A DNA stretch of 46,392 bases from Kipferlia bialata (Eukaryota). The notes below the pieces were generated by a model that saw only the letters and a list, made by a program, of their open reading frames with translations, was not told where the DNA came from and searched no databases. Shown piece by piece: positions 124-46,350 of this stretch; position 1 is the stretch's first letter, and each line of letters opens with the position of its first letter. Location: NCBI GenBank assembly GCA_003568945.1, contig BDIP01000018.1:1-46392 (forward strand), given 5' to 3'. The translations under genes were made by a program, and so were the position numbers.

Positions 124-1347
124 CTGTCTGTATGAGGGAGTGTCTGAGTCATGGTTGACCTCAGTGGCGTCTCTGTCGGCCACAGAGACAGAGGTGTCGT
201 CATACCTAGGATGAGGGATAGACATAGATGTATATATGTGAAGCACTATATATAATGTTAGACATAGAGACAGAGGTGTCGTCATACCTGGGGGGTAAGA
301 GAGATGAACATACAACAATATATATATACAGACTGGTGCCGATACTCCACACTACCTACCGGGATATCAGTATCTGTAGGACGCATACACTTTGTCACTG
401 GGAGTACATAGGGATCGAGACACATAGATGCATATGTGTGCAATGGAAACAGATGCATTCAGGTGACATATCTATATATAGTAACAATGTAGCCGTACCC
501 GTCCATGGCTTCGGCATAGTCTGCAAATGCCACGCTCTGCATACCCACACCAGACATGGGGGCAGGGGGAGCAGGGTGGGTGGGGTGGGTGGGGTGTGTG
601 GGGTGTGTGGGGTGGGTCCCCTGGGGTCCCATACCCATGGCCATACCCTGTGGGGGGAGGTAGCTGACCTTGGCGGGCAGTCTCTGTCCACTCACACCAG
701 ATGATACTGGGTTGCTGTGTGCTGGGTTGCCTCCCATAGCACCATACCCCTCAGAGGCAGTGTGACCATCGGTGTGCAGGGGGTTGAGGGTGGAGGTGGG
801 GGACTGGTGGGTATCAGCCTGGAAGGCATTCACCCCACCCTGCTCCATCCACATGTCGGCCCTGGGGTGAGGATAGAAGAGGGGGAGCAAGGGGTGAGGG
901 GATACAGCATGGGGGACATTGATGGTCAGCATCACTGAATGGACGAAACCAAAACTGAAATGGTCAACACATACTATCAAGGACCAGATCGGTATAGAAA
1001 CACTGTATCTCACATAGGGAGTGTGTGTAAGGGAATGGGTACCTGAAGGGACTGTATGGCTCGACAGCAGTAGAGGCGCTCCCAGACGGTTGAAATGATG
1101 ATGGTCCAGAAATACGGTCCCCGAATGAGTTCTGAGACAGGATGCCCATGCTTCCCGGCATTGCAGAGACGCCAGAGTGCAAGTCCTCGCCAGAAGGCTT
1201 CTCACCGGCCTGTTCATTGGCTACAGAAGTCCCAAAAAGGGAACCCTGTGCTCCAAGGTCCAGAAGCTCTCCATCCTGTACAGAACTAGGTCCTAGATCC
1301 CCTCCGAGGAAGCTCTCTCCCTCTCCGCTAAACCAGAGGTCTCCCAT
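124..1347 (-). CDS. hypothetical low-complexity (G/S/P/H-rich) protein, multi-exon, 3' end runs out of the window
   Basis: Exon 1347-1043 (MGDLWFSGEG...PF) splices in phase (AG|GTACCC ... CCCCAG|G) to an exon starting at 861 (RADMWMEQ...THPTHPTHPTHP...). A further exon at 205-124 is flanked by TAG and GTATG. No recognisable domain; start codon uncertain. Confidence 0.55.
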
Positions 1348-2525
1348 CTTCCCTCTGTTGCATAAAACAGCGACAGATCGCATGTTCATAGATCGCTTGG
1401 TCAACTTGAGCTATTTCGGATAGTTGTTTTGTTTTTGTTTCAGGCTCAAGTGCAGTTCAATCAATAAGAACTGTACCACTTCAAATACCATGTATATGGA
1501 TAAATGTGTACTGGTCATCAATTTACTGGTCTGCTGGCGTTGGATACCACCTGTGTGCAGCTGTATGGCCGAAAGTACATATAGTTGGAATAGATATGAT
1601 CGTCATAAGGGTTTAATGAAAATATGTGAATATATTGAACCCGCGACAGATCACAAGACAATCAGTCGATATGAGACAGATACAGAAATGACAAGTGGGG
1701 CAATTAGGGCAATGCGATACATATCGCTCCCACCACATAGACACCTATAGATAGAACGCTGGAATATTCAGCAGAGTCATGAATTCGGCGCTGTAGCGGC
1801 TCCATACGACCCTCAACCTACTCAGACGAAGGGTTCAGCTTGTGGAGGCAAAAACTCATGATGACAGAAAGCTGAAGTAGATCAACTCTCTAAGGCACAG
1901 TTGATTTCTAGGGTCAATAGGTCGGTACGGGCTGCCTGCACATTCCGCGGTATGCGCGTATCCTCCTTTGGTCTAAGAGTCATGCTGTGGCACATCGACA
2001 CATGATCCACTGAGAGCACACCTACTTGTCTCTGTGGTTGACTGTCATTTTCTGCGCTGTAGGCTCTGTTCTGCTGTGCATTGAGGTGTCGCTGGGAGTA
2101 ACACCCTGTTCTTGGGAAACTGGGGGCAGGGACGTGTATAAAAGGGACCCCTCACACTTGGGATGGTCTTAAAGCTGCACGGTACATACACTTGTTTATT
2201 GAAGACCAAAGGCCCTTGAGGCTGCTCCCCCAGGAAGACAGCATAAATACCGTTAACATACTTGCGCCTCCAGGCAGCGGAACGCAGAGGCCCTGCATTG
2301 TAGTATGGTTTCTGTCGGAGGGAAATGAGTTCAGATTTCATCCAGAGACTCAATGTCTTCTCTACCGACTCGAGGCATTGCCTCATACCACACCCCTTCC
2401 ACTACCAAGCACACCCTACACCCTACTACAGGGTCAGGGTCACACTCTGATCTGGGGCATAGGGGAGCCAGTAGCTAGTAGCTAGTGTAGAGATACAGCT
2501 GTGAGTGGCTGAGACATACATACCC

Positions 2526-5500
2526 ATGTCCCTGGACTCCAACCCTCTCTTCAAATACAGGGTGGCGTCTAGGTGGATAGATAACCCAAGGTACGCGTGT
2601 GGTGTGGTGTGTGTATGTGTATTATCCCTAGTGGCACATATTCCTAGGCTCAGAGAAATCCCACTCTATTTTTGGTTTATCATGTATACACGCCCCATAC
2701 CGACCCTGGCTATGCTCTCTTTCTCTCTCTCTCTTATACACTTACCCCATAGGCTATGTCGTAGTGTTGAGTCCACATCTGCCCCCCAGGCCATACCCAG
2801 GTTCACCTCTACATGTTCAATCACCTACACTATGTACCTAACAATCACCGATGCATTCCTATAGACCCCACTTGTATGTGTATGTATATGCCAGACACCT
2901 TCACTGCCCGTGTGTGCTGCCCTCCCCCTGAATCATATCCAGATATGTACTCATATATACTTATGCTCTTCAATCACCTACACTGTGTTCTCTTCTATTC
3001 TGATACCAACCAGCACACCAGACGATACCCATATATGTACCCTATAGTACATCGCCTACCCCCCCCTTACCTGACCCCAGGGCAAGACCGATACACACTT
3101 ATATGTATTAACTATCTCAGGTATTAATATCGTCCTTGTTCACCACCTTCCCATGTGTATCTGACCCCAGGCTGTCTGCCCCCAGGGCTAGACTGGGGCC
3201 ACCCCCACTGGACGCAAGGTATGTGTGTGTGTATATGCCAGCTGATAATGCCTTTATCCCTGATGATATACCCCCACTGGAGTCAAGGTATGTATATGCA
3301 AGTGGAACCTATATACCCCTGCTATAGGGCCCCCCTAACCCACCAGACTGCCTTGGGACAGAGTGTGTGCAGTATCAGTACATATATTACACCTCTCACT
3401 GGCAGACTACCTGGTGAGACTGACTGTGTGCAGGCCATAGCGCAGGGACACATGGCGCCCACCCCTCTACTACCACCGGCACTGCTCACGGCACAGGTAT
3501 ATGTATATGATATATACTATATATATACTATATATATATATTGAGTATGCAGTGAATGTAGTGTACCCACACCCTTACTACCACCGGCACTGCTCACAGC
3601 ACAGGTATATACTTATACACACACATATATATGTATACTATATATATACTATATGACTATGTGGAGTATATAGTATAACCACACCCTTACTACCACCGGC
3701 ACTGCTCACAGCACAGGTGTGTGTGTATGTATATAAGGATCAATCTTTGGGATATGTTGTGTCTAGTGTACCCACTCTGGCCTACCCATTTCCTATTTGT
3801 ATCCTAACCCCGAGGACGCCCCTGCCAGGGTATGAGTATATATGTATCTGTACGATTATATTATATATATCATTTATATACATGTATATACATGCTAACC
3901 CCCAGGACGCCCCTGCCAGGGGAAAGGGTGCACGGCAGGTGGTAGTGGGGGCTAGCAGGTACATATATAACAGCGGTGTATATATATATGAATATATATA
4001 TATCTCAATATCACTATTAGTGTATATGCAGGTGGTGGTGGGGGCTAGTTGGTTCTGGGTTCTGGTACATATATATGTGTGTGGGAATGCATATGTAGGT
4101 CGGGGGATAGGGCTAGTAGGTACAGGGCTAGGAGTATATACATCTGGCGCTTGTGAGGTACCTGTCATTGGTATCATGTCTCACCCATAGGAACTTGAAG
4201 GCATTTAGAAAGGCCGCTTTGGCCGAGCATCCACTTACGGATTGGCAGGTGGGGGATCAGTGGCAGTCACTTCTCTCTGTGGATGTGAACCGTAGTTCTC
4301 TCTGTCTCTATGGATAGCATCCTTACCCTTCAGTCCATCGAGCACCTGAACCCCAGTCCCCGTCTCCATCTCCATCTCTCTCTCTATTCTATACATATTC
4401 TAACTCTAGTCTCTCTCACCATATATATATAGATGTGTGTGTGTGTATATATGTTTATATATATCTACGGATAACATACTTACCCCCAGTCCATCTAGCA
4501 CATGAACCTCCGACCAGCTCTCTCTCTTTTCTCTATACTCTACATATTCTCACCCTTCAGTCTATCGAGCATCTGAACCTGAGTCACCAGGACCTGGGCG
4601 ATGCATACCAGGCCACATACCTGCAGCACATACTAGGTGGGTATATAGTGTATATATGTGACGGTGAGAGATAAAGAATCGTTTATGGGCTACTGCACCG
4701 GTATGTCTAGTATATGTATATATATGTATGCATGTGTGTCTGACCCCAGGTGTGCAGTGCCAGCCCAAGACGGCACCCCAGCTACTCAGCATAGACCTAG
4801 GGCATAACAGGTGGGATGTGTATGTGTGTATATATGCAGAGTATAACATGTACCAAGGATAGGCTCTGTGTCCAAGATAGTATGTTTGTATTCCACTACA
4901 GTATATATATATCGATACAATATTTATGCATGGTAATGACTTGAGACTATTCGCCCTAATCTCAGGATTGAGTCTCTGTCCAACATGTATCTGCCCCACA
5001 TCCAGAAGCTGTACATGCAGGGTGGGTATATCCTATATTACGTATATATCATATATAGTGTACATGTATAAATATACATATATACTTGTATCTGCCCCAC
5101 ATCCAGAAGCTGTACATACAGGGTGGGTGCACATGGATACAATAGTATGTATATTTGTAAATATAGTTATGTGTGTGTGATTGAATGTCTAGTCCTTCTC
5201 TCTCACTCCCTCACTCTCTCTCACTCACTCCCGATATATATGTATCCCAACCCAGGCAAAAACAGACTTGAGTCTTTCTCTCTGCTCCTCTCTCTCTGTA
5301 TATCAGTACATGCATATATATATATACTTACCCCTTAGGCAACAGCCTCGAGTCCTTCAAGGCCCTGCCCCTCTGTCCCAGACTGGAGGTGCTTTCCATA
5401 GACAGTAACCAGGTACATAGTAGTATATTCTGTATATACTCTTACCACACATATTCTTCATCCAGACAGACAGCTTCCAGGGAAATACTTCGTATAGGGT

Positions 5501-6277
5501 GACAGAGGGAGTATATGTACCCCGATCTCTCTCTCCCTTGTCTCTTACCCCTAGATAGAGACCCTGCAGGGTCTAGAGCGCTTCCCCCTCCTCAGAGTGC
5601 TGAGTGTCAGGGACAACCCAGTGGCCACATCTTTCAGATTCCTAGAGAGGTATGCATTATGCATTCATATTTGTATGGGTGTGGGTGTGTGTGTTGATAA
5701 CAGTCATATATATATATATATTTATATGGGTGTGATTATATGTGCGTGTATCCATATCCTCACCCCATTGGTGTGTCGTGATGTGTCCTGTCCTTGCATG
5801 CATTTGTATATAAATATTTATATATGAATGCAAATATATGTGTATTAGAGAGGTATCAACCTATATTAACCCCAGGTGTGTAGTGATGTGCCCTGTCCTT
5901 GATGTATGCAATGGCATACCCTGTCAGGCACTGCAGCAGGCAGCAAATGCACACGCCATACTCAGGAAACTCAACCCTAGGTATACAGTTTATAGTGTAT
6001 AGTATATAGTATATGTATAATGTGCGTGTTGGTCTCTCACCCTAGACGCCTTGCCTCCCGCATGGCCCAGATGAGTTTGACCAACAAGGACCTGTTGACC
6101 GAGGAAGACATAGGGAAGGAGGGGAAGAGTAAGAGGAGAGGGAGGGGGAGAGAGGCTGATATTGAGAGGGGTGAGGGTACCAGACACGTCCAGATTGATA
6201 ATAGGGAGGTGGATGTAGGGGAGAGAGCGGGGGAGAGAGAGAGAGGAGGGGAGGGTGGAGACTGGGGGGAAGGGTGA
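2526..6277 (+). CDS. leucine-rich repeat protein, about 13 exons
   Basis: Phase-consistent exons give SIEHLNLSHQDLG, LLSIDLGHNRIESLSNMYLPHIQKLYMQGNSLESFKALPLCPRLEVLSIDSNQIETLQGLERFPLLRVLSVRDNPV (LxxLxLxxNxI repeats), then an LRR-cap-like CPVLDVCNG and a charged tail ending at TGA 6277. Start at ATG 2526 is tentative. Confidence 0.75.
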
Positions 6278-6599
6278 CACAATAGACCGATAGCCAGTGG
6301 TGCAAGTGTTGCTTCTATTGTGGTATACTATTAACAGTGTCAGTGTATGTATATGTACTCAGTCGGATACTCCCTTCATTTGTATCTACAGAGACCCAGA
6401 AAGAGAGGGACTGTTTGACACACAATTCCATACACAACACACAACCAAAAACACTAATTCGTCTATTTGAAGCCAGTCCTAAAGACCAGCATGCAATAAA
6501 TACACTCTAAGATGCAATATGCAATCACACACATTGCGTTAATCAACAATCAATTATCTACACTACACCGACACACACTACCACAGCCTCCCCTGCTGC

Positions 6600-8533
6600 T
6601 TACCAGGCCTCAATCACAACGAGGCCCTTGTCGCACAGCTCGTCGTACCTCTTCTGGGCACCGTCTGCTGTGAGGCCTCCTGCTGTCACCATGGAGTCCT
6701 TGATGATGGAGACAATGTCCTCGGGAGTGCGGCCGGCAGGGCCACAGTAGCCGAAGAACCCGTCGACGGCACCGAGGCTGTTCCAGACCCTCTCCGGGTT
6801 CTCCCTCATCCTGTGGGTCACGTACACCTTCTTGGCCTGCTCCCTCGAGAAGGCAGTCACGTAGTCGCACAGACCCATCTTCTCCCACTTCTCAAACTCG
6901 TCGATGCAGAGGGCGTCCTCGTTCCTGCGCCTGCAGCCAAAGTAGATGGTGCACTTGCCCTGCATGATGCCTCTGTTGTACAGGGCCTCGCGGTGCTGCA
7001 TGAAGGAGCGGAAGGGGGCAATGCCGGAGCCAAGGCCCACGCAGGTGATGGGGACCATGGGATCCGAGGGGGGCTGGAGGGGGGAGGACTTGATCTGGAC
7101 AGCCACCATGGGGTTCTCAAAGACGTTGAGGTCCTTGAGGTACCGGGTGCACTGGCCGTACCTCATGGTGCCCTTGGCTGTCTTCCAGTCAACGATGCCG
7201 ATGACGAGCTGGATCTGCTCGGGGTGCATCATGTGGCTGGAGGCAATGGAGTAGAGACGGGGGTTGTTGCCGGGGATCATCTCGATCAGGTAGTCCAGAG
7301 AGACAGACACAGACTTGAACATGTCAAACACCTCGTGGTAGCGCACAGACTCGGCCACAAACTGCTCGGCAAACTCGTCCTTGCCCTCCTTGGCGGTCAG
7401 GTGCAGCAGCCTCTCCCTCTCGGACCTGTCGGTAGTGAAGGGGATCAGCGACTTGAGGAAGGACTTGGTGATGGGGCCGCAGACGTCCAGGTAGAGGCCG
7501 AACACCTCACGGACAGTCAGGGAACGGGACAGGCCGGGGGGGACCTCGGTGTCGCCGTTGCCGCGGACAGTGATGACCATCTCGGGGTCGATGGAGAGCC
7601 TCTTGCAGAGGGTGTCCACGACATCGGTGGGAGCCCTGGCCAGAATGGAGATGTGGAAGCCAGTCTCGTAGGTGAGGGTGGTGTTCTCAAGCTCGAAGTG
7701 GAACTTGTAGGCGTCCCTGGGCACTCCGTTGGGGGTGATCTTCTCGGAGTGGGAGAGCCTGACGTACTGGAACTTGGGAGGGGGGGGAGGGGGCATCTGC
7801 ATGGAGGCAGTACGCACACAGGTGAACTTGGGCTCGGGGATCTGGCAGCCACCGGCGTCAGCGGCACCGAGGGCGTCCCAGAGCTGCTCCATCCAGGGGC
7901 CGAGGGCGCCCTCGTACTTCTCGGGGTGGAGCTCGTCTCCCATGCCGAGGGGCACGAGGGACTTGGCGCCGAGGGCCTTCATCCTGTCGTCGACCTCAAT
8001 AGCAGCCTGGCAGAACATGGGGTAGGAGGAGGAACCAATGCCAAAGACACCCACGCGGGTGTTCTCAAAGAGGTTCTCGGCGTGGTCGGAGGACTCGAGC
8101 CACTCCCAGAAGTTGGCTGCGTTGTCGGGGTGCTCACCCATGCCGAAGGTGGAGGTGACGTAGACCAGGAGGCCGGACTTGATGAGGGTCTCGGGGTTGA
8201 TCTTCTCGATCGGCTTGAGGGTCACGGCAAACTCGACGTCCTTGTTCTTGGCCTCGGAGGCAATGCGCTTGGCAATCTCCTTGGAGTTACCGGTCTGGGT
8301 GGCGTACACGATGGTCAGGGGGGTGCCCTCGACGTTGGTGGAGGGGGAGTCGTCCTCCTCGTCCTCAGTGGGCCTGAACACAATGCCGGACCTGTCGGAG
8401 TAGTGGGTGTGGAGCAGCTCGTGGGACTTGTGGGACAGGGGCTTCTCGAGGAACTCCTTGTAGAGCTGGGCAATGTCGGGGTTCTCGTGAGACCTCCTGG
8501 GGGGTGAGAATGGAGAGAGAGCGGGGGACACAT

Positions 8534-8564
<31 letters not shown>

Positions 8565-9351
8565 CCTGAGAGTGGACCTCTCGTCGATGTTGTAGATGGC
8601 CTCAGTCCTCTTCTGGAGGATGTTGGGGTTGAGGGAGCGGGGCTGTCCGCCTCCTCCGATGCAGCCACCGGGGCAGGCCATGACCTCGACAAAGTGGTAC
8701 TCCTTCTCGCCGGCCCTGATGCCGTCGAGCAGCTTCTGGGCGTACTTGATGCCAGAGGCAACGGCGATGCGGAGGGTCTTCTTCTCACCGGTGGGGAGGG
8801 GAACCTCAACCATGGCCTCCTGGATGTCAGTGTCAGAATCTATACATATGGATATACTCATATATACATTTGTGTATCAGTATGCATACCTTGATGCCGT
8901 CAAAGCCACGCACGGGGGCGTAGTTGAGGACGGGGAGGGGGGTGCCAGAGGCCAGCTCGTAGGCAGTGCGCAGGGCGGCCTCCATAACACCTCCAGTGGC
9001 ACCGAAGATGATGGCGGCACCTGGGGGTGAGGGGAGAGAGGGGGGGGGGGGGTATGTATCATATATATATATATACTAGTATATGTACACACCTGTGCCG
9101 GATCCGAGGGGGCAGTCGAACTTGGACTCGGGCAGCTGGTTGAACACAATGTGGTGCTTACGCACGAGCTTTCCGAGCTCGCGGGTGGTGATCACTGCGT
9201 CGATGTCGGCGACACCGTCGGTGGAGAGCTGGGCACGGGCGATCTCCTGCTTCTTGGCGGTACAGGGCATCACGGAGCAGGAGAAGATCTGGGAGGGGGC
9301 GACGCCGAGCTTCTTGGCGTAGTAGGACTTGATGAGAGCTCCCATCATTCC
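6600..9351 (-). CDS. hydA: [FeFe]-hydrogenase (H-cluster domain C-terminal part plus small-subunit domain) fused to a flavodoxin/FAD/NADPH diflavin reductase (CPR/CysJ-like); 5'-partial
   Basis: Exons 9351-9093, 9020-8890, 8819-8566, 8496-6600. H-cluster motifs MPCTAKKQE (P2), IFGATGGVMEAALRTA and EVMACPGGCIGGGGQP (P3); small-subunit motif RSHENP...HELLHTHY; FMN motifs YATQTGNS and TSTFGMGEHPDNA; FAD motif RLYSIASS; NADPH motifs GLGSGIAPFRSF, YFGCR, AFSREQAKKVYV and YCGP; terminal Trp before TAA. The P1 motif (TSCCP) and N-terminal FeS domains are not in the window. Confidence 0.93.
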
Positions 9352-9376: not shown

Positions 9377-9452
9377 GGGGGGGGGGGGGACGGGAGGGGG
9401 GGGGGGGGGGGGGGAGGGGGGGAGGTGGGGGGGGGGGGGGGGGGGGGGGGGG
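9377..9452. repeat. interrupted poly-G tract; probable assembly junction
   Basis: About 76 nt of nearly pure G lying between exons of two unrelated genes. Confidence 0.85.
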
Positions 9453-9633
9453 AGATATACATATCACCATATATGTAGGGGAGGGGGTATGTGACATCCA
9501 TACTCACTTTGCCCTGTAGTACCCTGCCTCCATCAGCACTAACACATACTTGTATCAAATATATACCATGTACATGCACTCTTATATACATAGATACATA
9601 CAGTATATATTCATATATAGTATATACACTCAC

Positions 9634-10338
9634 TTTGCCCTGTAGTACCCTGCCTCCATCAGCACCTCCACAATGCGGTCATAGGCTGCAGCCTGGAGAG
9701 TTAGGTATATAGCCAAGAGATAGCAAGATCCATATATAGTGTGCGGTCACAGGCTGCAGCCTAAAGAGTTAGATATATAACCAAGAGATAGAAATATCCA
9801 TATAGGGTAGTGTGCGGACATATGCTGCGGCCTGTGGGGTGAGTCAGGGAGTAATACACAGTTATGTAACTAAGCGCAGAGTATGTATATAGCGATGTAT
9901 ACCTCTCTGGAGTCGAAGCAGTCCCTGCCTCTCCGGTCAGGACGGTCAGTCAGGTCAAACCCTGGGGTGAAGGGAAGGTGTATGATAGTGGTGTGTGAAA
10001 GGAGCGGGGTTGGGGGAGGGGGGGGGGGTAACTACAACACGTCCAATCATAGTCAATGATACAACTGCAACATACGGAATAGAATGGGACATAAAACAAA
10101 ACACATACATGAACAACACTCCCACGGGATAACCACCTTAACACTTAATTGTGAGTAACGAGTGTGTATGCACTGACCATAATCAACCAAAACGAGGTAC
10201 CCACTCGTGAAGTGAAGGAATACACTATATACCCAGTTACTCATACAGTAGAGTGGAAGCATACACATCTAACACACTCTAACACACACTCTAACACACA
10301 CATACACACTATGTACCTGGTGGGAGGGGTCGGGGCAT
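9634..10338 (-). CDS. CCDC93: N-terminal fragment of a CCDC93-like protein (CCC/Commander complex subunit), 3 exons, 3'-partial
   Basis: Exons 10338-10317, 9961-9903 and 9692-9634 splice in phase to MPRPLPPGFDLTDRPDRRGRDCFDSREAAAYDRIVEVLMEAGYYRAK, resembling the CCDC93 N-terminal motif (I.ELL..AGYFRAR) as I recall it. Only about 47 aa are visible. Confidence 0.6.

Positions 10339-10977: not shown

Positions 10978-11023
<46 letters not shown>
10978..11023. repeat. poly-C homopolymer
   Basis: 46 consecutive C. Confidence 0.95.
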
Positions 11024-11159: not shown

Positions 11160-12569
11160 GTGAGTCCCCGTTCTGGCACCCTACACATGCCATGCTGTAC
11201 TGGGTGGACATCCCAGCATGTAAGGTATATATATATATAGTATATATATATATGCTGTACTGGGTGGACATTCCAGCATGTAAGGTATATATATATATAG
11301 TGTATATATATATATATATATGCTGTACTGGGTGGACATTCCAGCATGTAAGGTATCAGTGTGTTGTCGCTATCGAAAGACCATGTCTATGTATATTATA
11401 TCTTTTGACCCACAGGTGTGTCGGTGTGCCCCCGGCTCCCCTGTGGAGGTGTGGCCTGTCCGCCAGGAGTGTGGGTGCATTGCCCCTCAGGAGGGTGGGG
11501 GACTGGTGCTGGGCATGAGGGACGGGGTCTACACGGCACGTGAGTGGGGAGGGGACCTTGCACTGGTGGCACCATTCCCAGGTGGGAACTCTCTCTCATC
11601 CTAAATCCACATCAATAGCTACGTTGTCACTACTTCATCCCCCCCTTCTCATCGTTGTCTGATCCCAGGTGACACCTCCCGTGTCAGATGCAATGATGGG
11701 AAGGCAGACCCCGCAGGGAGGTTAGTACCCAGCAGATGAGTGTGGCCAACATAGACGCATCCATGATACTGACACTGTAGGTTCTGGGCTGGCACCTACT
11801 GCGAGGTCAAGGATGTCCCATGCGCTGCTCTCTACTCTCTGGGAGTGGGTGAGAGCAGTCTCAAGGTAGTGTCCCTATATATAGAGAGAGAGTGCCAGCA
11901 GTCACCCACTGATGATAAGTATAACTAATCTTAAGGTACATCACAGTGGGTTCTTCACATCCAATGGTCTGGCATGGTCTCCCGATGGAAACACGGTCTA
12001 CTGGGCAGACACGAGGTACTGGAGCATCTCGTGTGTGACCTAGTTTTAGCTAGGATTCGTCTGTCATAACCCCAGTAACCACCGAGTTGTAGCCTGGGAC
12101 TGGGATAGTGAGACTAACACCCTGGGTACACAACGGGTCTTGCGTCAGTTTGAAGGTGGGTGGCGGCCAACACATCTCTATTCACCATAATGCGAGACGG
12201 ATGTGTCCCTCACCCCTAGGCAAGCCCCAATGGTGGGTCCCTGGGATGCCTGGGTATGGTGGGAGACCAGACGGTGCAGTGGTCGACACCGATGGTCACT
12301 ACTGGGTGGCCATGTACGAGGGAGGGTGTGTGCTGAAGCTCTGTCCTATCACAGGACAGACCCTCGAGACTCATTCTGTCCCAGCACTGTGCCCTACTAT
12401 GCCGTGTCTTGGTCCTGCTGATGCGGACGGACACTCCACCCTCTATGTCACCACAGTCAGCAAGGGTAGGAGTCAAGACGAGAGACTGGTCCTGCCTCTC
12501 TCGGGGTGTGTGCTGGCCAAGCAGGTTAAGGCCCGAGGACTCCCGGTCAACTTCTGTTCGGGTCTCTAG
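11160..12569 (+). CDS. SMP-30/gluconolactonase/LRE family protein (sugar lactonase-like beta-propeller), at least 7 exons; 5' end uncertain (candidate ATG at 10704 beyond the poly-C tract)
   Basis: Spliced translation contains GESPFWHP...LYWVDIP, RCNDGKADPAGRFWAGT, SNGLAWSPDGNTVYWADT, GRPDGAVVDTDGHYWVAMYEGG and PTMPCLG...LYVTT: the E/N/N/D metal-ligand motifs of the family. Confidence 0.9.
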
Positions 12570-12902
12570 CCTCTCTCAACTGGCAATCAGGATAGTAGTA
12601 GTTACCACCGCAAGTGTTGGTACTGAATTACTGTACTTTCGATGGATAGTGTCACAAGCACAGTATCACAGACTCTCTAGTACATTGTCTGTAGTTAGCT
12701 CGGAGGTCTTGTGGTTGAAGGCTCCCGTCGGTCTCTCTGGCCAGCAGCTATGCCATGGGACTATAACGCACCATATCACCATATCACCACAGTCTGTGGC
12801 ACAGAGTGCCTCTGACATAAACCCTCATATTTGTCTTTTTGCTGTAGACAGATATGACACTAACCTTGACCTCGAACGACCTATTTGGGCTATTCAGAGC
12901 AT

Positions 12903-31200: not shown

Positions 31201-32204
31201 TGCCTCCTTCCTGGCAGTTCTACTACCCAGGTACTCACAGACATACCTTAGCATAAGTGGGGTATATATGTGTATATGTGCATGCATGTGTGTGTGTGTT
31301 GGTGTCTATGGATATGTTTGCAAGAAACTCACACATACCTGCCATTATTGCATGTATCTCGGCAATAGAGAAAGAGTAGATAAGAGTCTTATGATAAGAC
31401 AGTGTGGACAGAAAACCCTAGGTACTCCAAGACATGTACACATACATAAATATAGAGTACTAGAGTGACACACAGCTGTATCGCACATGAAGCTTGCCAA
31501 ATACGAAGACGTAGGTGCCTCATACATATAAACAGACATTACATCGGGTAACAGAGGTAGAGCGAGAGACTCACATGAGGTTGGCCAGGACCAAGTGGGA
31601 CAGCAGGATCAGAGAGAGGATGTTAACGGCTGGAGGTGAGGGATAAGACGTAAATGAAGGAGTGTCAAATATATACAGGTGTCTTATATAGATCTGTGAT
31701 AGAGAGCAGGGAGGGACAGAGAAAGAGAGAGGGAGGGAGAGACGAACTCACCATCTGTTCTCTTGAGAGACTGAGAGTAGGGTTGTATCCTGTGGAGATT
31801 ACATATACATGGCGGTACTGATATATGTATATATATATATATACTCACCCACTGCACTCTTGAGAGGCTCCAGCAGAGCCCAGTCACCAGCAATGTCTAG
31901 AGGTGAGTGGAAATGAGATGGTACATACCGAGAGCAATCTCGGGATATACAAATACATATTCTTGTACTGCACAGGGGAGACTTCGCAGAGAACTGCCAA
32001 TATGAAGCTGTGGCCACCGCGTGCGATATATAGGTACATATCACATATGTACCTTCGCAGGGTACAGCGAATGCGATGGCTGTCTCGTACCATGGTACAG
32101 TGTATGTGATATCCTGCACAATCCTATCTTTCGAAACAGAGACACTGCCTTGAGTAAGTATAGTATGTATAATCTCTCTCTATATATACAGATCGTCCAG
32201 TATG

Positions 32205-32243
<39 letters not shown>

Positions 32244-33925: not shown

Positions 33926-34099
33926 CACCCAGGTACGCTGCAACACACAAGCAACACCAGTGCACGAGCTAGAGTGACTGAAGGAAGAGAGTGTCATGAA
34001 AACTGCCCAAACTTGTCAAACAGTCCATTTTTGGCTTTCGGTTCTCAACAGGGTGAACTTGTCTCTCTCTACCGCTACTGCCGAAGCGCATCAGCAGGA
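33926..34099. promoter_or_regulatory. putative bidirectional promoter between the two iGluR-like genes
   Basis: 174 bp separates the divergent ATGs at 33925 (-) and 34100 (+). No specific motif assigned. Confidence 0.55.
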
Positions 34100-37000
34100 A
34101 TGCGGCTCTGGCGTGCATTGCACCTGTTGCTGTTAGTACTTGCTGTGTGTGATGTTGTGTGTGGTGTGGATCAGGGGGAGGGGGCAGTTGTGACTAGTAC
34201 CCTCAGTACCGACACTGACACACACATACTGACAGACACACCTGCGTTGCCAGAGTCCTTCGTGACTGTGCTGCTGCCACCCTATGCATACTGTGATGCG
34301 ACTGGAGAGACAGAGCCATGTGAGTGCGATACACACTGTGTATATGTACTTCATTGCATACTCTTATACTCTGTATATGCTGTATCAAGCCCACTCTCCC
34401 ACTTCATCGTTATCTTCCCATTCCCTCACTCCACCAGGTAGCTTTGCCATTTACTTGTCTTCTCTGTCACGCCCCCCCTCTGAAACATGTAGCTCTCCCG
34501 ATATCCAGTCTCTCTTACCCCCCCTCCTCTCCCTCTTGCGTCACTCCAGGTCTGCTAGGTCCTAAACATTCAGCCTCTCTCTCTCTTGCCCTCTTTCTCT
34601 TATCAATAGATGGCGTTGTTATTGACCTTCGCTCCCCCTCCCTCTTTCTCTCTCTCTCTCTTTCTCTCTCATCAATAGATGGCTTTGTCTTTGACCTCCT
34701 TGACCAGCTCAACGATGCCATGAGGACAGGTGAGGATGCGATATATTGCATATATATACTCACAGTACATACACTCTTGAATATACTAGACACTATATAT
34801 ACTATATATATATGTACATAACGATGCCATGCGGACAGGTGAGTCTTAGTATGCATAGTGCATGTATATTACACTCAAACCATTCCGAGTATATACTCTA
34901 TATACTCTATATGTACTATACTTACTATATATACTATATATACTATATATGTATCCGGCATGTAGAAGCTCATCACTGACCTCACTCCACTATCGCTCCC
35001 CCCCCTCACGAAAGACTGAACATTGCATGGTTATCTCTCTCCCTCTCCCTCCCTTGCCCCACACTAACAGTAGACTACACGATAGAGTGCCGTGACATGT
35101 CGTTTGACCAGGCCGTGGCTGCTGTGTCTGACAACGAGTACGCAGTATTCCTAAGTGAGTGAGGCCAACTGTCCCGATGCTACAACAGTCTCCAATATAT
35201 CTTCAACACCAGTATATTCTTAAATTCCTAAAGTATTATATATTTCTTTCACGTTGTATCTTCCTAACCCTAGACTACCTCGGCCAAGAGAGTGTGGTCC
35301 AGGTCATCATACACTCATATGTATATATATATATATACATGTAAATATGTCCTGTACATATTCCTTATAACATGCCTAACCCCCAGACTCCGTCTCTCTC
35401 AACCAGGACAGAGTGGTCCAGAACATCAGATACAGTGTGCCATACCATGAGTCAGGGATAGCGTTTGCAGTCCCATGCGACAGTACGTGTACCACTATCT
35501 CTCTCCCTTTGTCTATCTTGACCTTCTTTGACATATCTTGACATATCTTGACCCCCAGAGGCCAGCAGCGACTGGGCCATGATAGAGCCAATCAGTAGCC
35601 CGGTAGGTACAAGCAATGATGTCTCTCTCTTATAGGTCTCTATATCTGTCTGCATACATCCCTTACCACTAGCTGTCAACGTGCTCTCCCTGATCCTGCT
35701 GTCCCACTTGGTCCTGGCAAACCTCATGTGCGTCTCCCTCTCACCCTGTCTAATGTGTTGCAAAGTGATTAGTGAGCGTCAGCCTATGATATCTCTATGT
35801 CTCAGTCACTGGTGTGTTAGTGTAGGGTGTAGTAGATCCAGCATCTTTATGAATATACTGTGACGAGTATTATAGAGTCAGGTATATTGTGTATTCAGTA
35901 TCCATATTGCCCCTCATCCCAGGTATGTGAGTGGGTGCGCAGGAGGACCAGTATCTATATACACATATTATGAATACACATATATTCATGCAGACATACC
36001 TATATATATATATACTGCTCTAACATCCCAGGTATGTCTGTGAGTGGCTGGGCAGTAGGACCAGTAGAAGAGAGGCATACAGCTCCAAGGCACTTCTGTT
36101 GCTGTGGCTCAGTGTCCTAGGTATGTACATATCTACAATTTGTGACTATACACAAGGGTATGGCTCGCTTCACGATATATACACGACACGAGACACTATG
36201 CTTTGGCTACTGTATAGATCTACCATAACCTCCAGGCTGGGACCTAGTTGGTATCAAGACTGCTGGGGCCAGACTGGTCCATATTACTATATTACTATTG
36301 TTACTTTTCTTAATTTCTGCCCTACGCAGGTCGTACTGTAGAGTCTCTGACCCCTAGGCTGGGACCTAGTGGGTATCAAGACTGCTGGGGCCAGACTATT
36401 AGCATTCTTGGACACACTGGTATGTATGTATCCCTCTATCTGTTTTGTTGTGTAGTTCCTGCTCTGGCAGCACTCCATGCCAGTTGTCACACGGCAATTG
36501 CCGCTATCCACTGATTCACATTTGTACACATAGACTATTACAATAACCCTGATCATGAGGTTGTTCCTGTTAATATGGCCTTGTACCTCTCGGTCTCTCT
36601 CTCTCTATCCCTCTCGCTCTAACTGTAAATCCCTCACTCTCTCTACCTCTAGATGGCGACTATCCACATGGTTCTGTGTTACCCTAATCTCCAGATAGCT
36701 ACTATCCTCATGGCCCTGTGCCTCTCTCTCTCTCTAACTATCTAACTCTCTGTCCCTCCCTCCCTCACCTAAGATTGCTGCTATCCTCATGGCCCTGTAC
36801 CTGTCTGCTGTTACTGTGGAGAGTGTGTCCAACACTTCTCTATCCTTCGACACATCTGACCTGGAGGGGGTGTCAATAGGTACGCATATTCCCTGTCACA
36901 CATTGTCACCTCATCGAGTTACTTCCACCAACTCTCTTCCTTGATATTTGTCACGCTTTGTCACACAGTCCTAACGTGTAGGAATTGAACCAGACAACGC

Positions 37001-38836
37001 TTTCTGGGTATGGATGGCTGAGACCGGTGCCGACAATGTGGAGTATGAGGCAGATGTGTTTGAAACATGCCTCGATGACCTTTTGATATCAAGTGAGTAT
37101 TCTGTAACCGAATTTACTATTAGTTTCATGTATTTATCGCAATTTCCTGTCTGGCCACCTTGTAACTCACCCAGACTCCTCAATATCTAACACCTTATTG
37201 TTGGCTGTTTCGTGACAAGTTATGACATGTATCCAACTCCAGACTCCCCTATATCTGCCTGTGCTGGTGACAAGGACCTCATCAACCACATGGTCAAGGA
37301 GCACTCGGGGGATGTGTGTGTACTGCCACAGGTATACACTGTATACTATACAGCCATTCATGTAGTATTAGGGACACACAATAGTATCAGACTGTCTGAG
37401 ATACCATTATATAAATAGTATTTTGCAGAGGGTTGTACACATGTACACTTACTACAGGTAGCTAATATCCAAGGTGTCTATAGCATAGTGTATATAGCAT
37501 ACATTATATAATACATGTGTATGTAGTTTAACCTAAACACGTGTAATGCTTACCTCAGGTTGCCAACATCCAAGGTGTCTACAGCGTTGTGTCCAAGGAC
37601 CTGCCTGGCCTGACAAAAGATATCAACGTGGCACTGGTCACACTCATGAATGATGGAAGGTATATAGTATATATTATATACACTATATACTATACTGAGG
37701 TATGTCCTATACACTATAGCTATCCATGTCGATATATGTATATATATATATATATGTGTGTGTGTATATGATGTAATGTGGCACTGGTCACACTCATGAA
37801 AGATGGAAGGTATTCACTCTCTCTTTCACTCTCTCTCTATATATATGTGTATATGACTACTGTTCTTCAATGGTGGCACTGGTCTCACTCATGATTGATG
37901 GGAGGTATATAGCTCTAAGCCTTCCACGTGTACATATATACATACATATATAGCATGTGTATATGCTATATAGCTATGGATATAGTCTGACCCCCAGGAT
38001 GGACTACCTCGTCAACACGTTGATTGATAAGGAGTGCATATTTCTACACAAAGTATATCCTCGCAGATATGTATACACACACGTATTTAGATATATATGA
38101 GTGACCCCCAGGATGGACTATCTCATCAGCAAGTGGTTGAGTGATGCCCCGACAACAGCAGGATATAGCTATGAGGTACAGTATATAATTAATATATATG
38201 GATACAGCTATGAGGTATGATATACTAGCTCATAAGGCTGATATTCTGTTGCTCAGTAACTGTGATATCTAAAAGATAGTCATTATCTCTAGTACACTCT
38301 ATATAGATACGCCACAGGGTTTGCTATCATAGGACTTGATGTGCACTCACATACAGCCTAGAGTATCATGATATCGTATATCAATATGTGTTCATTTTCC
38401 ATATGACTATAAGCTTACCCTCAGGTCACCAAGTGGGCTATCATAGGCTTCGCAGCGGTTGCCATATGGCTTATTGTAATGTTCTACTGTCAGGTATTGG
38501 TGTCTGGTATACATATAGATGACAACTGACTGAGACATGTATATATATATGGCTATATGTTTTTACGATGATGCAAGTATATGTCAGGTACCCAAATTGC
38601 TAGTCTTCCACTTGTAAGTACCCTGCCATTCTACCATCGCTATATTATTGTGTTCTTAGAGTCATTTTAGTCTTACATGTATTGTAAGAGTGAACAATCT
38701 CAAAGCTACCACTGCCTCGCTCTCTTATTATTTATTATCATTGCTATTCTATTGTTCAGTGTACTCTGTCTTTAACTCTCAGGCGTCCCTCAAGACTGCG
38801 TCTTCCAGAGACATACCAAAGAGAGCAGTCCCATAG
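34100..38836 (+). CDS. ionotropic glutamate receptor-like ligand-gated channel, paralog B, about 15 exons; frame of last exon uncertain (stop at 38836, 38902 or 39001)
   Basis: Signal peptide MRLWRALHLLLLVLAVC; S1 FVTVLLPPY, YGFVFDLLDQL, SVSLNQDRVVQNIRYSVPYHESGIAFAV; M1 NVLSLILLSHLVLANLMYVCE; pore LWLSVLGW; IKTAGARLL; M3 ILMALYLSAVTV; S2 DINVALVTLMNDGRMDYLISKW; M4 WAIIGFAAVAIWLIVMFY. Collinear with paralog A. Confidence 0.8.
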
Positions 38837-39406
38837 AAGGGACAGCGAGGGGGAGAGAGAGAGAGACAGAGAGAGAAGAGAGAGACATTCCAAAGAGAGT
38901 AGTCGCCTAGCAGAGACAGAGGAGTCTTATGGAACGAGACGAGGTATGGGTGTAAAGAAGAGAGAGAGAAAGAGTGTTGGTCAACGCGTTTTCAAGACTA
39001 GAGACCTTCTGGGACTCTTGGGGCCACACTTCCTCAGTGGAATACGTGTCGACTACCCTCTTCAGCAGAGAATATGTCCTACAAATGTAATATAGATGTA
39101 TCATACTATTCTAAGTGACTATAGCGGCTAGAATTTCGCCAGGCAATGTTACAGTGACACAGTAGGATGGAGTTTTACTAACACTATTAGCACAGCAATT
39201 ATTGATGCACATTCTAACAGGTGTAAGAAATGGAAAGAGAGGGGGAGAGAGAGAGTACATACAACAGATTAAGACTCTTCAGTGCGACTCTACACCTCCC
39301 TGCAGAGTCTGAAAAGCTGAGGTTCTAAAGCATATGTCTACTTTCGGTATCATGTATCTATGCTTAAGATGAGTAGATATGAGTATATGGTCTCTTCACA
39401 TATCTC

Positions 39407-41365: not shown

Positions 41366-44300
41366 TTACAATAATGCCAGTGGGTCAAACTCCACCTCCT
41401 CGCCCTCCTCCTCAACCGCACCCCAATCATCACCGCCCAGGGGGTTGTTGTCCTTGGACTCCTCCTCATTAGACCACTCGTCCTCACTGACCTGGGCAGG
41501 AGCAGGGGCACTCGTCAGACTCCTCGAAGTCAGACTCAGACGCCTCAGCAGGGGGAACCACCTCAGTCTCCTGGAACCTGAGTGCCTTAGCAAGGGGGTC
41601 GACAACCTCAGCCTCAACCTCTGGCTCTAGGGCCTCATCTATGAAGGAGAGAGGGTCAACCTCCTTCACCTCTACCTCAGCCACTGGCTCTCCAACAACT
41701 ACCCGCCTCTCCATCCTGAGACCATCAGCCTTGACCATCATGCCCACCCCACTCACTGGCAGCATATCCTCAACAGCCTCTGAAGGGAGAGCTGCGACAC
41801 CTACTCTTAGCACCTTAGCCACCTGGGGAAGGTGTGCATAGCGAGAGAGGCTGTGGACTACTCTGGCACGCTCAGCCTAGAGGTGAGTGGGCAATACACT
41901 ATATGATTATACACTATGTAAGCACTCTATGTATATACTATATCACAATACCTACGAAGAATATCAGCTGAGTATAGAAGAGTAACAGTGGAGTAAAGGG
42001 AGTACCTGTGCAGTGCGTAGAGTCGCTACTCTCTGCCTGATGGTCCTGGCCTGGTTGAGGATAGCCTGTCTCTCCACAGAGCTGAGGGTGCGCTTCTTGG
42101 CCTGGACCTAGGTTAGCACAAGTGGTGGTTGATGTACTAATAGTGCAATGAAGTGAGTGGACTCACTTCGCATTCTCAATACGCATACTGATAACACTCA
42201 CAACATGTAGCTACTGTATATACTGCGTGTTAGTCACATACTTTCTGCAGCTCTGCCTCGTACTCCTCGTCCCGGCCTCTCATACATGGACGTAGCGCCG
42301 TTTGGTATCACATATAGTAGAAACATAATTTTAGATACCAATATCGAGTATTCTTCCCCTGTAACAATAGTGTTGTATATATGCAGTACAGTGCACAAAC
42401 TCTCACCTCCTGCACCTCTGCCTCGTACTCCTCGTCCTGGATGGTGTCATCAGAGACTACCTCTAAGGTACTGAGGGTGGCCAGTAGTGCCTGGGATTAG
42501 ACACACACAAATGTTTCACTTCCCAGTATAGAAGCTACATGGAACTCCATGTGCTCCTGAGCAACCTCTAATGTATATCATCACCTCACAAGTCGAATAT
42601 AGCTAATTGCAGTACGTATACCCAGTGTAGAGTTACTGCATGTATCATCTAATCGTTAGTATGTCTGGTGATACCTGGGACTCCCTGTGCTCCTGTGCCA
42701 GAGAGGCAAGGACGGGAATGAGGGCCTCACACCTAGAGTAAGTCGCTATTTATCCACACACCCATTTGCAAACACAAACGGCTACTCATATGCATTCTCT
42801 GCTCTAATCCATATATATACATGTATGTATCTATGGATTTATTAACACATATTTATCCGTACCTCTTGATAAGGTCAGCACACTCCTGCATATCTGGTGT
42901 CACAAGGTCCTCAAGCTGCTTCTTGCATGCCTCTATCGCAGACTGGGTAAGACGGAGATACTCTAATACTCGTCGTGTTACGTATATTGAATTTTGTATG
43001 AGAACAAACACCACATACCACTTTTGGATAGAAACGTATTATATTCTAAGAGTCTGGAAAGATCATTGTAAATACACACCTGGCAATCTATGACACCTCC
43101 TGCACTCTGGAACAGAGTCCTCACTGAGTCATTGTGACTGGAAGGTGAGTGAATAACTACATGTATACACGCTAGAACTCTAACAACATAAATGTAAAAT
43201 GAACACAACATATATGATTCATTAGGCTTACAGCAGCTAGCGTCAAAAGATGATTCAAGGAGATGACAAGACTGCCCAAGGAACTATGCTTGAACTATCA
43301 TATGGACACCAATTTCATTGTGAAGACACACACAACGTTCACATACCCCTCTAGCTGACAGTACTTTCTCTTGTTGGAGAGGGTCAGAGTAGCCATGTTC
43401 CCAGGAAGAGGTATGACAAAGGCAGAGTTAACACCTGGGATCAGTACATATGTATATGGATACACTAGTTTCAACTTGCTGGGATTGTCCATATTCATAC
43501 TAATATACTATTATGTTACTGTTGTGTGTGTGATACAAGAAGGGAAATATCCAAGGCAGTGCTAACACGTAGTATTCAAGCAGATCCATCTGGAGAGTAT
43601 CCAGTGGATACCACACACTTCAACTGCTAAGACTGAGAATGGAACCATAACATACACTACTTTCCATCAGCTTGACTGCTCCATATACAGGACATTATTA
43701 GTATAGTATGGATGACTATGTAAGAATGAATCTGTTACACACAATGCTCACACTCGTAAGTATATACTCCGTACCTTCCATCAGCTCCACTGCATCCTCT
43801 AGCATGGCCTTGCTCTCTGCGACACTGAATATGGGGGTGTCCTGCTGTTAGTAGTGAAAGAGGTAAGAAGAACAAATACAGACAAACTTTCTAACTGACA
43901 ACGATACTGGTAGACATACTATGTGTTAGTACTATGCCGGAGTGAGAAACAGTGATAACAGGTTATTAGTAAAAGATATACATGTGTACCTTCCCAACCT
44001 TGGGCTCGACAACCTCAACTTCACACTCAGCCTCGGGCTCCTCATCCACGAAGCAGAGAGGGTCAGCAACCTCGGGCTCGGCCTCAGCCTCAGGCTCCTC
44101 ATCCACGAAGGAGAGAGGGTCAGCCTCCTCTACCTCNNNNNNNNNNNNGCTCCTCATCCACGAAGGAGAGAGGGTCAGCCTCCTCTACCTCAGGCTCTAC
44201 CTCCGCCTCTACCTCAGCCTCTGGGGCCTCATCCACGAAGGAGAGAGGGTCAGTCTCCACAGTCGCTGTAGAGACCGGTGCAGGAGTGGGCTTGGGGGTA

Positions 44301-46203
44301 ACCAGGTCTGTAAGACTGGTGTGAGGGGAAATAGAATATATATATACAATATATAATTAGAGACTGAATACTAATGTCATACAATATGTGTGAGGAGAAG
44401 TATAGCACTTCCACATATTCACTGTTAGATATATATAGTACTAGTGTCAAACAGGGGCCTCAAGGGAAACGTAAGGGTAACTTGGTATGAAGGAGAGAGA
44501 GAGAGCATCAGAAAGAGAGAGGCACCGGAGAACGTCATACCATGTGTATGCAGCTTGAAACTCCTGGAGGAGAGAGGTCAGGGTGGCACCAAGAGCGGCA
44601 CAGTCCTCAGAAATGAACTTGTGTTAACGGGAGAAAATATACTGAAACCTGGAAGTAACAAGAAAGAAATAGATGTAGGGGTAGCACCAAGAGCGGCACA
44701 GTCCTCAGAGACAAACTGGTATAAGAGAGAGAAGAACATATATATATTGAATACTATCTACCTTCTCTCTGGGGTGCTGTCTCAGGAACTCTTCCAACTG
44801 GACCTTACCCTCTGCCACTCTCTTGGCAAGGGGTATGTACTCCTCTATCCTGGTGATGTGGATGGATAGGGACTCAGCGTCAAAGGACCTAAGGTTAGGA
44901 TATACTTTACGAGAGATTTTCTAATGGGAGAGTAGAGGGAGAGAGAGTAGAGGGGGAGAGAGAGAGAAAATATGGATGGACAGGGACTCATTTTTAAACG
45001 CCCTGGAGTGAGAACTATGAAGTAAACACTGTATATGATATATATATATAATATGTATATATATTCATATACATGGTGATGTGAATGGAGAGAGCATCAG
45101 CGTCAAATGCCTTGATGTCAGAGTACATCAAGAAAGCATAAAGACGAAAGAGTGAGAGGAAGCAAGTATGTGGGACACAACAATAGGGTCAAACATGACA
45201 CAGTGCTACAAGCGACTATGAAGGAAGACCGGAATAGAAGTGAATAGTGTATAGGTTATGGACATGAAAACATAGGTATACTAAGCTTACCCCACCCTCT
45301 TCAGTGTCTCCTAAATCCGAGAGACTTGAATCTAAATGACCATTGTGGATATAATGAAAGACATGGGTATGGTAGATGTATATATATATATATGATGAAT
45401 GTATGTTACCTGACTCTCTCCGTCAGCTGCTGTGTACACACATACACATATATATACATATGTGTGTGTGGGGGGGGGGTGTTGGTGTGCTACCTGGCTC
45501 TCTCTATCAGCTTCTGGGTCTGCACTGTGTCCGAGGGAGTGTATGCCTCGAACTGGGCCTTGGCTACAAGGGCCTATGGTTAGAATGATGTGTAATACAT
45601 ATATGTTTATGAGTAGTCATTATTGGACATGATAAACACTAACAGAGAGAGAGAAACAAGAGTCTATGTTCAAGTGTCATGTCAGATATATACACTGTAA
45701 AGTATATAATCTATTGTGAATACACAGAGAGAGAGAGAGTAGTGATTATGTTGGGGGTTGCTAAATACTCAAGCACCACACTGTATGTATATATACACAA
45801 GCAATACCTGTCTCTGCCTCTCTACTATATATACTATATACTATATACTATATACAAAATACAATATATACTATATATACTAAACCATTTATATTATACG
45901 TATACAGACAATACATGTCTCTGCTTCTCTCTCTCTCTCTCTCTTTCTCTCTATGGATATATACATAGAGGTATATATATACAATACCTCTCTCTGCCTC
46001 TCTGCCTCTAGGTCCAGCACCCTCTCTCTCTAACTATATATATATACTATACATATTGGTGTTTCCTGTCTCTGTCTCTCTCTCTCTCTCTCTATATATA
46101 TACACTATATATATATATGCAATACCTCTCTCTGTCTCTCTGCCTCCAGATCAAGAACCCTCTCCAGATCAGCCCTCATGGCATCCACAGCAGCTTCCGC
46201 GGC
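41366..46203 (-). CDS. hypothetical helical/coiled-coil protein with acidic DPL-motif repeats, many exons, 5'-partial
   Basis: A series of GT-AG-bounded exons (e.g. AAEAAVDAMRADLERVL, SFDAESLSIHITRIEEY, SAIEACKKQLEDL, VQAKKRTLSSVERQAILNQAR), repeats DPLSFVDE, and an acidic tail ending EFDPLALL*. Apparent 1-nt frameshift near 41510 and an N gap at 44137-44148. Confidence 0.65.
44030..44255 (-). repeat. coding tandem repeat (DPL[S/C]FVDE plus acidic spacer), at least 4 copies, interrupted by N gap
   Basis: Repeated + strand unit ctcatccacgaaggagagagggtcagc. Confidence 0.8.
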
Positions 46204-46350
46204 CTATCATTAGAGCTATGATGTATATGATTATATATATATATATATTAATATATATATATAGTGTGAGTATATAGAGAGACCAGCCCTCATGACATCC
46301 ACAGCGGCATATGCATCCTGGTGTCAGGTGTATACTGAGAAAGTGGATAA

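Follow-up and report, generated by a model that had tools for sequence, protein, structure and literature searches.

Tandem copies that span exon–intron boundaries have been described in amphioxus as 'mirages', at the loci for Adh3, troponin C, the globins BflGb6 and BflGb9 and PGBD5 (PMC3087553, PMC3902484). Mirages lie at either boundary, many with AG/GT, the units measure 60–160 bp in the globins and PGBD5, splicing is reportedly undisturbed, and unequal crossing-over and intron gain have been proposed. In human F7, a 37-bp variable number tandem repeat (VNTR) in intron 7 carries repeated donors, of which only the most upstream is used although others are functional (PMC1557585). In Daphnia, direct repeats in newly gained introns (neointrons) have been attributed to staggered breaks, and repeated break repair has been proposed to lengthen introns passively (PMC4202315). 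A review (PMC3443670) covers the gain of introns through tandem duplication of genomic sequence (Rogers model; Hellsten 2011; Gao and Lynch 2009). Here we describe related copies, termed splice-site echoes, in a window of 46392 nt from Kipferlia bialata (GCA_003568945.1, contig BDIP01000018.1, 1-46,392), a free-living fornicate with a 51-Mb short-read assembly, 124,912 annotated GU-AG introns (PMC5874029) and 87 of 174 surveyed spliceosomal proteins (PMC6679479). A donor echo is a copy of the upstream exon's 3′ end together with its GT, placed downstream of the real donor; an acceptor echo is a copy of the AG and the 5′ start of the downstream exon, placed upstream of the real acceptor. All counts refer to this single window and not to the genome.

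The echoes resemble mirages in being tandem copies that span either boundary and in retaining AG/GT (GT intact in 25 of 27 donor echoes, AG in 22 of 25 acceptor echoes). Mirages, however, are minisatellite-like arrays at a handful of animal loci, with globin units 81–100 % identical (PMC3087553, PMC3902484), whereas in this protist window 42 of 79 introns carry echoes, in one to three copies and with homology mostly limited to the exon half. Similarity of whole units, intron part included, is seen in a few arrays only (8 of 52 echoes extend at least 16 nt into the intron). Additionally, differences between echo and exon are skewed towards synonymous change, a property not mentioned in the accessible text of the mirage reports (PMC3087553, PMC3902484). 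The F7 VNTR likewise places repeated donor sites downstream of the real donor, but it is one locus with donors only and identical repeats that were experimentally tested (PMC1557585); the Kipferlia copies are degenerate, lie at both intron ends and in many genes, and are known from sequence alone. With Daphnia neointrons the likeness is the proposed lengthening by repeated break repair (PMC4202315); there the repeats are internal to newly gained introns, whereas here exon ends and splice sites are copied into introns largely common to two paralogues. Tandem-duplication intron gain also involves local duplication of splice-like sequence, but in the model as reviewed, exon sequence is duplicated into a new intron (PMC3443670), whereas the Kipferlia copies enlarge existing ones. 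Given mirages and the F7 VNTR, the statement in a preliminary description of this DNA that no named feature class covers the pattern does not hold. No report of such echoes in Kipferlia, or genome-wide or at such prevalence in a protist, was found in a literature that lacks most subscription papers, and the string 'duplicat' has 0 matches in the main text of the K. bialata genome paper (PMC5874029). New here are the prevalence, the usual end of homology at the splice motif, and a synonymous skew beyond duplication and neutral decay.

Exon models were built by coordinates from open frames, GT–AG ends, acceptor motifs, paralogue agreement and one public model. This gave 11 gene models and 80 introns, of which 79 were used; the first intron of the SMP-30 gene, whose frame is unresolved next to a poly-C run, was excluded. 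All introns were compared by alignment with exon-only probes at a cut-off of p ≤ 0.02, the null being given by probes swapped in from other genes. The upstream exon's 3′ end was copied in 25 of the 79 introns and the 5′ start of the downstream exon in 29, with about 1–2 expected in each case. Opposite ends of the same exons, that is, probes of the wrong polarity, matched 0 of 61 and 0 of 61 introns, which rules out duplication of whole exons followed by decay. The polarity is real, yet it is also what selection for an intact frame would leave. An iterative search detected 64 copies, of which 60 were kept (29 donor and 31 acceptor, spread over 36 introns) and four were dropped as low-complexity or off-junction. 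The exon part has a median length of 32 nt in donor and 30 nt in acceptor echoes, and donor echoes lie ahead of acceptor echoes in all 10 introns holding both.

At least one echo-bearing intron is found in 8 of the 11 gene models, and the load is uneven among genes (permutation p = 0.0014), from 12 of 15 introns in gene G2 to 0 of 3 in a hydrogenase fusion and 0 of 7 in gene G0. Echoes are present in 0 of 20 introns shorter than 100 nt, 8 of 20 of 100–199 nt, 14 of 18 of 200–299 nt and 20 of 21 of at least 300 nt; intron length follows 138 nt plus 105 nt for each echo (r = 0.75). Repeats of exact, complex 13-mers lying no more than 450 nt apart form 42 clusters, 30 of which involve a catalogued echo; 7 are intron–intron, several of these also being junction pieces. 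The preliminary description had held that echoes pervade spliced genes and that introns grow by junction-spanning copies, and it had proposed shuffled exon–intron pairs as the control; enrichment, polarity and the increment per echo bear it out. Its 25 places are all accounted for, 22 of them overlapping blindly detected echoes (end coordinates were supplied by us for places given as a single number). Places 4480-4510 and 9505-9541 are echoes by separate alignment, one falling below the score cut-off and the other lying in an intron outside the 79, whereas 3461-3500 is not an echo but the real exon end, the source copy. Junction echoes are confirmed as real and pervasive in the window.

G2 forms with G3 a head-to-head pair of glutamate-receptor-like solute-binding membrane proteins (28288-38836) that are 52 % identical and have most intron positions in common; G2 has one additional intron at an AG/G site, and the last intron is placed differently. 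At least five further members of this family are present in K. bialata. Exon lengths of the two paralogues agree over most of their span, which supports both gene models. With exon 1 of G3 as query, one protein was returned, K. bialata KIPB_000172 (SBP_bac_3), which has 12 of 14 junction peptides in common with our model. The two departures are a 3-nt acceptor shift and exon 13, for which the public model takes the echo 37998-38052 in place of 38112-38175. The family alignment favours 38112-38175 as the probable exon 13: it keeps a tryptophan that 4 of 5 other paralogues have, as does G2, and that the echo-exon is without. As in this exon 13, echoes appear to mislead gene annotation. A protein search with exon 1 of G2 returned no protein, which is weak evidence, and the public comparison is limited to one model.

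Homology between an echo and its source is mostly confined to the exon half and usually ends at the splice motif. Ungapped homology into the intron has a median of 4 nt for donor and 3 nt for acceptor echoes (null near 3), and identity is 88–92 % in exon parts and 54–57 % over the next 40 intron bases. In young echoes, the exon parts of which are about 90–94 % identical, 40–42 % of the six bases beside GT/AG mismatch, as compared with 56–62 % in unrelated introns. For innermost echoes, identity of the adjoining intron is 0.56 (donor) and 0.55 (acceptor) against a null of 0.50. A dinucleotide run adjoins the far end of 42 of 60 echoes (background 43 %, p = 1.6e-5).

These properties bear on plain tandem duplication within one chromatid, by slippage or by Pol-theta joining of staggered breaks with TA-rich filler, followed by neutral decay. 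Under this account, microsatellite slippage would rapidly scramble the intron half, and the only sources of the synonymous skew would be selection on the real exon and sampling noise. Arrays with periods of 68–112, spacer homology in some young units and the dinucleotide runs at the far ends all fit, as do the presence of PolQ and absence of Ku (PMC8516963), the direct repeats in young Daphnia introns attributed to staggered breaks (PMC4202315), and GT/AG retention equal to the neutral expectation (25 versus 24.0 and 22 versus 20.7). However, sequence after innermost donor echoes is no closer to the spacer than chance (significant intron homology in 0 of 21), even at 97–100 % identity of the exon part, and the account predicts a ratio of 0-fold to 4-fold mismatch of at least 0.5, which the echoes do not show. 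We regard it as unlikely, albeit the strongest of the alternatives.

Of 208 unique echo–exon differences, 99 are synonymous. The floor of 0.5 is our own derivation and assumes neutral decay of the echo and an exon in which silent changes alone are tolerated. Over all 60 echoes, mismatches occur at 93 of 981 0-fold and 72 of 257 4-fold sites, a ratio of 0.34 (p = 0.0085 versus the floor); with one echo per exon end (n = 46), the figures are 77 of 776 and 56 of 201, a ratio of 0.36 (p = 0.034). In young echoes the ratio is 0.25. Plain duplication with neutral decay, simulated and passed through the same detector, gave 0.59 ± 0.12, with 0 of 60 runs at or below 0.36; when selection on the exon was relaxed, the value was 0.74, and wrong reading frames gave 1.5–2.2. 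Mismatch at 0-fold sites climbs with distance from the junction (0.063, 0.089, 0.112 and 0.153; near versus far p = 0.029). Individual arrays show the same kind of change: the two echoes of the donor array 3459-3718 agree with one another in the exon part but depart from the exon itself at 4 positions, all synonymous; the middle echo of G2 exon 11 (array 29842-30061) has 5 aligned differences from the exon, all synonymous; and the SMP-30 donor echoes 11252-11284 and 11320-11352 each carry an identical single synonymous change. Differences between echoes (0-fold 12/157, 2-fold 10/42, 4-fold 8/45) are skewed as well, yet cannot be polarised and were not counted as support. The skew exceeds what duplication and neutral decay give. 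Thus, of the suggestion that the copies are local duplications across junctions, the spanning of junctions stands, whereas the plain tandem form leaves both the stop in homology and the skew unexplained.

Out-of-register recombination, or repair of breaks, involving diverged alleles of one gene is the likely process by which echoes are written and refreshed, a reading to which we assign a probability of roughly 0.5. A broken or stalled end in a TA/CT-rich intron would be joined to sequence copied from slightly inside the exon, by alternative end joining or by homologous invasion ended by end joining. As allelic introns would be unalignable and exon ends the sole homology, the echo could then mis-pair with the real exon end of the sister or the other allele, and unequal exchange would build arrays of 2–3 units and swap the echo for sequence that had been coding until then. 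Only copies landing on the intron side would survive, with the spliceosome mostly taking the outermost sites, the protein unchanged and the intron longer by about 100 nt per event. The simplest account of both the exon-confined homology and the synonymous skew would be a template in the coding exon of a different allele, the intron of which had diverged beforehand. Two routes would lead there. In one-sided invasion, a break in the intron would be repaired by copying from the homologue and then end-joined; in the other, a founding duplication would later mis-pair with the other allele's exon end, building arrays and refreshing the junction-proximal echo. The increase in 0-fold mismatch away from the junction fits such refreshing. 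Dmc1 is tolerant of mismatches. Metamonads are listed without Ku and DNA-PKcs, and fornicates without Rad51A and with Dmc1 instead; K. bialata entries in the supplement include PolQ, Spo11 and four Dmc1 (PMC8516963).

Several points weigh against recombination between diverged alleles. The allelic diversity that it needs, roughly 15 % at silent sites by a back-of-envelope estimate, is unobserved: no second allele was found, and at a threshold of 85 % likeness a single contig matched 28585-30345, with no differing letter, hence no heterozygosity there in this culture. The excess over the floor is modest (p 0.009–0.034) and comes from a single window. The skew is not significant in old echoes (ratio 0.38, p = 0.081) or, when a single echo is taken per end, in genes other than the receptors (p = 0.2), the third-position share alone (0.54) is not significantly above 0.5 (p = 0.15), and the synonymous test on all echoes loses significance if transitions are given a weight of 4 (p = 0.17), the weight implied by 4-fold sites being about 1.5 (28 transitions among 65). 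The split into young and old was made on observed divergence, and the gradient with distance may partly reflect alignment edges. As plain duplication predicts, some homology to the intron, though weak, persists at innermost acceptor echoes (4 of 20, Fisher p = 0.004), and the spacer is copied as well in some young units (44 and 58 nt). Finally, the presumed use of outer sites draws on reading frames, paralogues and the public model.

A mobile element could leave echoes as target-site duplications, in the manner of introners, or close paralogues elsewhere in the genome could serve as templates. A direct repeat with an unrelated spacer has the shape of an insertion, and a paralogous template would also yield synonymous differences. 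Cross-intron matches (n = 183, 14–81 nt) are, however, nearly all low-complexity, and no shared element or family of intron or spacer sequence across genes was seen within the window. A search with KIPB_000172 gave no close paralogue, the next family members being 26–36 % identical, the paralogue in the window is only 52 % identical, and echoes occur in 8 gene models. Such sources are accordingly considered very improbable.

As decoys, many echoes would be strong, in line with the preliminary description: on a matrix trained on the window, the score equals or exceeds that of the real site for 9 of 27 donor echoes and 13 of 25 acceptor echoes. Use of an echo site would give an in-frame, stop-free product in 6 of 50 cases, and would break the frame or add a stop in 44. 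With so few viable uses among well-scoring echoes, the outermost sites would have to be the main ones, as had been proposed, and echo sites would mostly be ignored; reading frames, paralogues and the public model would point the same way in this window. Contigs of a possible RNA run, X2, gave 0 matches over 28585-30345, a result that bears neither on expression nor on the use of sites. Retention of echo GT and AG shows no excess over the neutral expectation of 24.0 and 20.7, and no selection for or against them was seen by this comparison. Neutral retention and few viable frames together suggest that strong inner sites are neither purged nor much used.

Function might still keep echoes, as pieces of alternative or mutually exclusive exons, as recursive splice points or as decoys that tune splicing. 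The synonymous skew resembles coding constraint, a stop codon occurs in just 2 of 60 echoes, echo splice sites remain strong, the public KIPB_000172 model takes one echo as an exon, and 60 of 79 exons end in AG, a potential second-step acceptor. Yet a substitute exon that is in phase, free of stops and paired with a credible partner site could be made from only 1 of 47 echoes, a trivial 17-nt case; whole in-phase exons with their own two splice sites, as expected of mutually exclusive exons, are limited to this 1 of 47 and one public-model case. Also against function are the 44 of 50 damaging uses, the retention of GT/AG at no more than the neutral level and the missing tryptophan of the public echo-exon, and a decoy role would not favour synonymous change. 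On the predicted frames, present-day coding use does not explain the skew; the earlier suggestion of alternative use in coding finds no support, and maintenance by function is improbable overall.

Whether echoes could be products of assembly was assessed with contigs of the DNA run X1, which contain 0.98 of sampled 31-mers from 24000-30700. One X1 contig (3548 nt, depth 476) spans 28585-30345, a stretch with four echo clusters that include the triple acceptor array of G2 exon 11, with zero differing letters and zero gaps. This direct comparison covered 1761 of 46392 bases; X1 may be the source data of this DNA and consists of contigs, not long reads, which leaves the copy number of near-identical units unconfirmed. 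Stutter, or heterozygous alleles stitched in tandem, would suit a short-read assembly (PMC5874029) and the apparent mis-join at a poly-G run in the window, and stitched alleles would yield synonymous differences. The recovery of 31-mers and the single deep contig that crosses spacer–echo joins without difference weigh against this, and stitched bubbles predict acceptor copies before donor copies, the reverse of the order in 10 of 10 introns. With spacer–echo joins present in reads and copies that are degenerate, stutter is unlikely, and artefact of either kind is the least credible of the alternatives.

The further idea that introns arise by junction duplication is not borne out, as a clear duplicate of the preceding exon end was found at the 3′ end of just 1 of 78 introns. 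Such copying at the AG/G site was found in 3 of 78 at p ≤ 0.05, one of them a strong case; this is chance level, which rules out a general origin by duplication, so that introns here in general grow rather than are born in this way. The clear copy closes G2 intron 15, remodelled into branch point and acceptor (28327-28350, minus strand), and G3 is without an intron at this position. It is a candidate intron gain by duplication and fits the tandem-duplication model (PMC3443670).

Genes and echoes are listed in Table 1.

Table 1. Genes, echoes and arrays in the window (positions in nt)
Feature	Position	Strand	Details
Gene A, protein without assigned function	124-1389	-	3 exons modelled; acceptor echo 256-287
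Gene B, leucine-rich-repeat-like by eye	2526-6281	+	13 exons
Gene B donor echoes	3270-3287, 3566-3604, 3679-3716, 4028-4048, 5084-5122	+	
Gene B acceptor echoes	3347-3372, 3815-3830, 4334-4361, about 4490-4505, 5261-5294, 5771-5803	+	
Gene B donor array	3459-3718	+	Exon end and two echoes, period about 112
Hydrogenase–flavodoxin–FAD/NAD fusion	6600-9351	-	Echo-free contrast, 0/3 introns (69-72 nt)
Three exons of gene cut off at poly-G run	9502-10338	-	Donor echo 9502-9539
Acceptor echoes of poly-G-truncated gene	9742-9760, 9813-9831	-	Period 68, spacer copied too
SMP-30/gluconolactonase gene	11160-12569	+	Donor echoes 11252-11284, 11320-11352 on (TA)n spacers
Gene G0	20081-24801	-	Echo-free contrast, 0/7 introns (48-99 nt)
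Gene G1	25711-27750	+	5 exons; donor echoes 26100-26139, 27150-27172; acceptor echo 26879-26904
Gene G2, solute-binding/glutamate-receptor-like, G3 paralogue	28288-33997	-	16 exons
G2 donor echoes	33316-33351, 33213-33248, 33108-33123, 32419-32468, 31982-32011, 31042-31076, 30412-30430, 30320-30349, 28918-28950, 28487-28510	-	
G2 acceptor echoes	33552-33571, 32710-32743, 32260-32297, 30974-30991, 30907-30934, 28745-28776	-	
G2 exon 11 acceptor array	29842-30061	-	Three acceptor echoes, period about 101
Copy of G2 exon 15 end	28327-28350	-	Doubles as that intron's branch point and acceptor
Gene G3 (KIPB_000172, SBP_bac_3)	34100-38836	+	15 exons
G3 donor echoes	34820-34838, 37775-37809, 37873-37904, 38200-38214	+	
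G3 acceptor echoes	34610-34628, 35279-35314, 35923-35953, 36236-36275, 36575-36591, 36653-36677, 36695-36727, 37458-37491, 37998-38027	+	
G3 acceptor echo used as exon 13 by public model	37998-38052	+	
Gene G4, protein without assigned function	41484-46203	-	Two parts modelled around N gap
G4 donor echoes	45988-46026, 45410-45435, 43662-43679, 42540-42562, 42245-42275	-	
G4 acceptor echoes	45058-45107, 44970-44990, 44671-44709, 43536-43568	-	

Copies of last-exon ends lie past or across stop codons at 39288-39318 and 27735-27778, and the duplication process therefore extends beyond splice junctions. In G2 intron 2, a 45-nt pseudo-exon (33105-33151, minus strand) has an acceptor-like start joined via a short common word to a donor echo, and is related to an intron-internal repeat near 33000-33050. 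In G2 intron 3, an imperfect inverted repeat (32175-32289) surrounds a (TA)27 run and is a possible cruciform or fragile site.

At 9377-9452, a poly-G run apparently mis-joins two genes. The peptide that ends the exons upstream of it may correspond to the N-terminus of CCDC93; the hydrogenase downstream is without its N-terminal part, the Pfam match beginning at profile position 104. Further long G/C runs (1-49, 10978-11023 and about 24870-24940) may be similar weak joins. The echo-free gene at 6600-9351 (minus strand) fuses the C-terminal part of an [FeFe]-hydrogenase to a small subunit and to flavodoxin, FAD- and NAD-binding domains; its GC content at third codon positions (GC3) is 0.87, and it is possibly highly expressed. 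Amid this intron-dense region, an intronless frame of 2124 codons (12870-19241, plus strand) with filamin/Ig-like and weak FG-GAP matches likely encodes a surface protein, perhaps recently acquired or retroposed.

Intron lengthening and the choice of the spliceosome between duplicated sites are long-standing questions that have mostly been studied at single loci or in constructs. If the window is typical, pairs of a real and a decoy site, graded in age and strength, are present in tens of thousands of Kipferlia introns, and the choice of outermost sites, for donors as well as acceptors, becomes testable on a large scale in a protist with short introns, where intron definition would usually be expected. 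By means of the synonymous skew, recombination and allelic diversity could be read from a single haploid-like assembly, in an organism without Ku and Rad51A. More tentatively, and with the odds somewhat against it, a genome-wide ratchet of intron growth may operate in Kipferlia, in which recombination between highly diverged alleles writes coding-derived exon ends and working splice sites into about half of the introns. Were this so, intron length would count copying events, introns would form a fossil record of other alleles for the reading of which one haplotype suffices, and the reduced spliceosome of a protist would choose the outermost sites by exon definition over tens of thousands of natural tests with duplicated sites. 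The echo load would force the splicing machinery to pass over look-alike sites in most genes.

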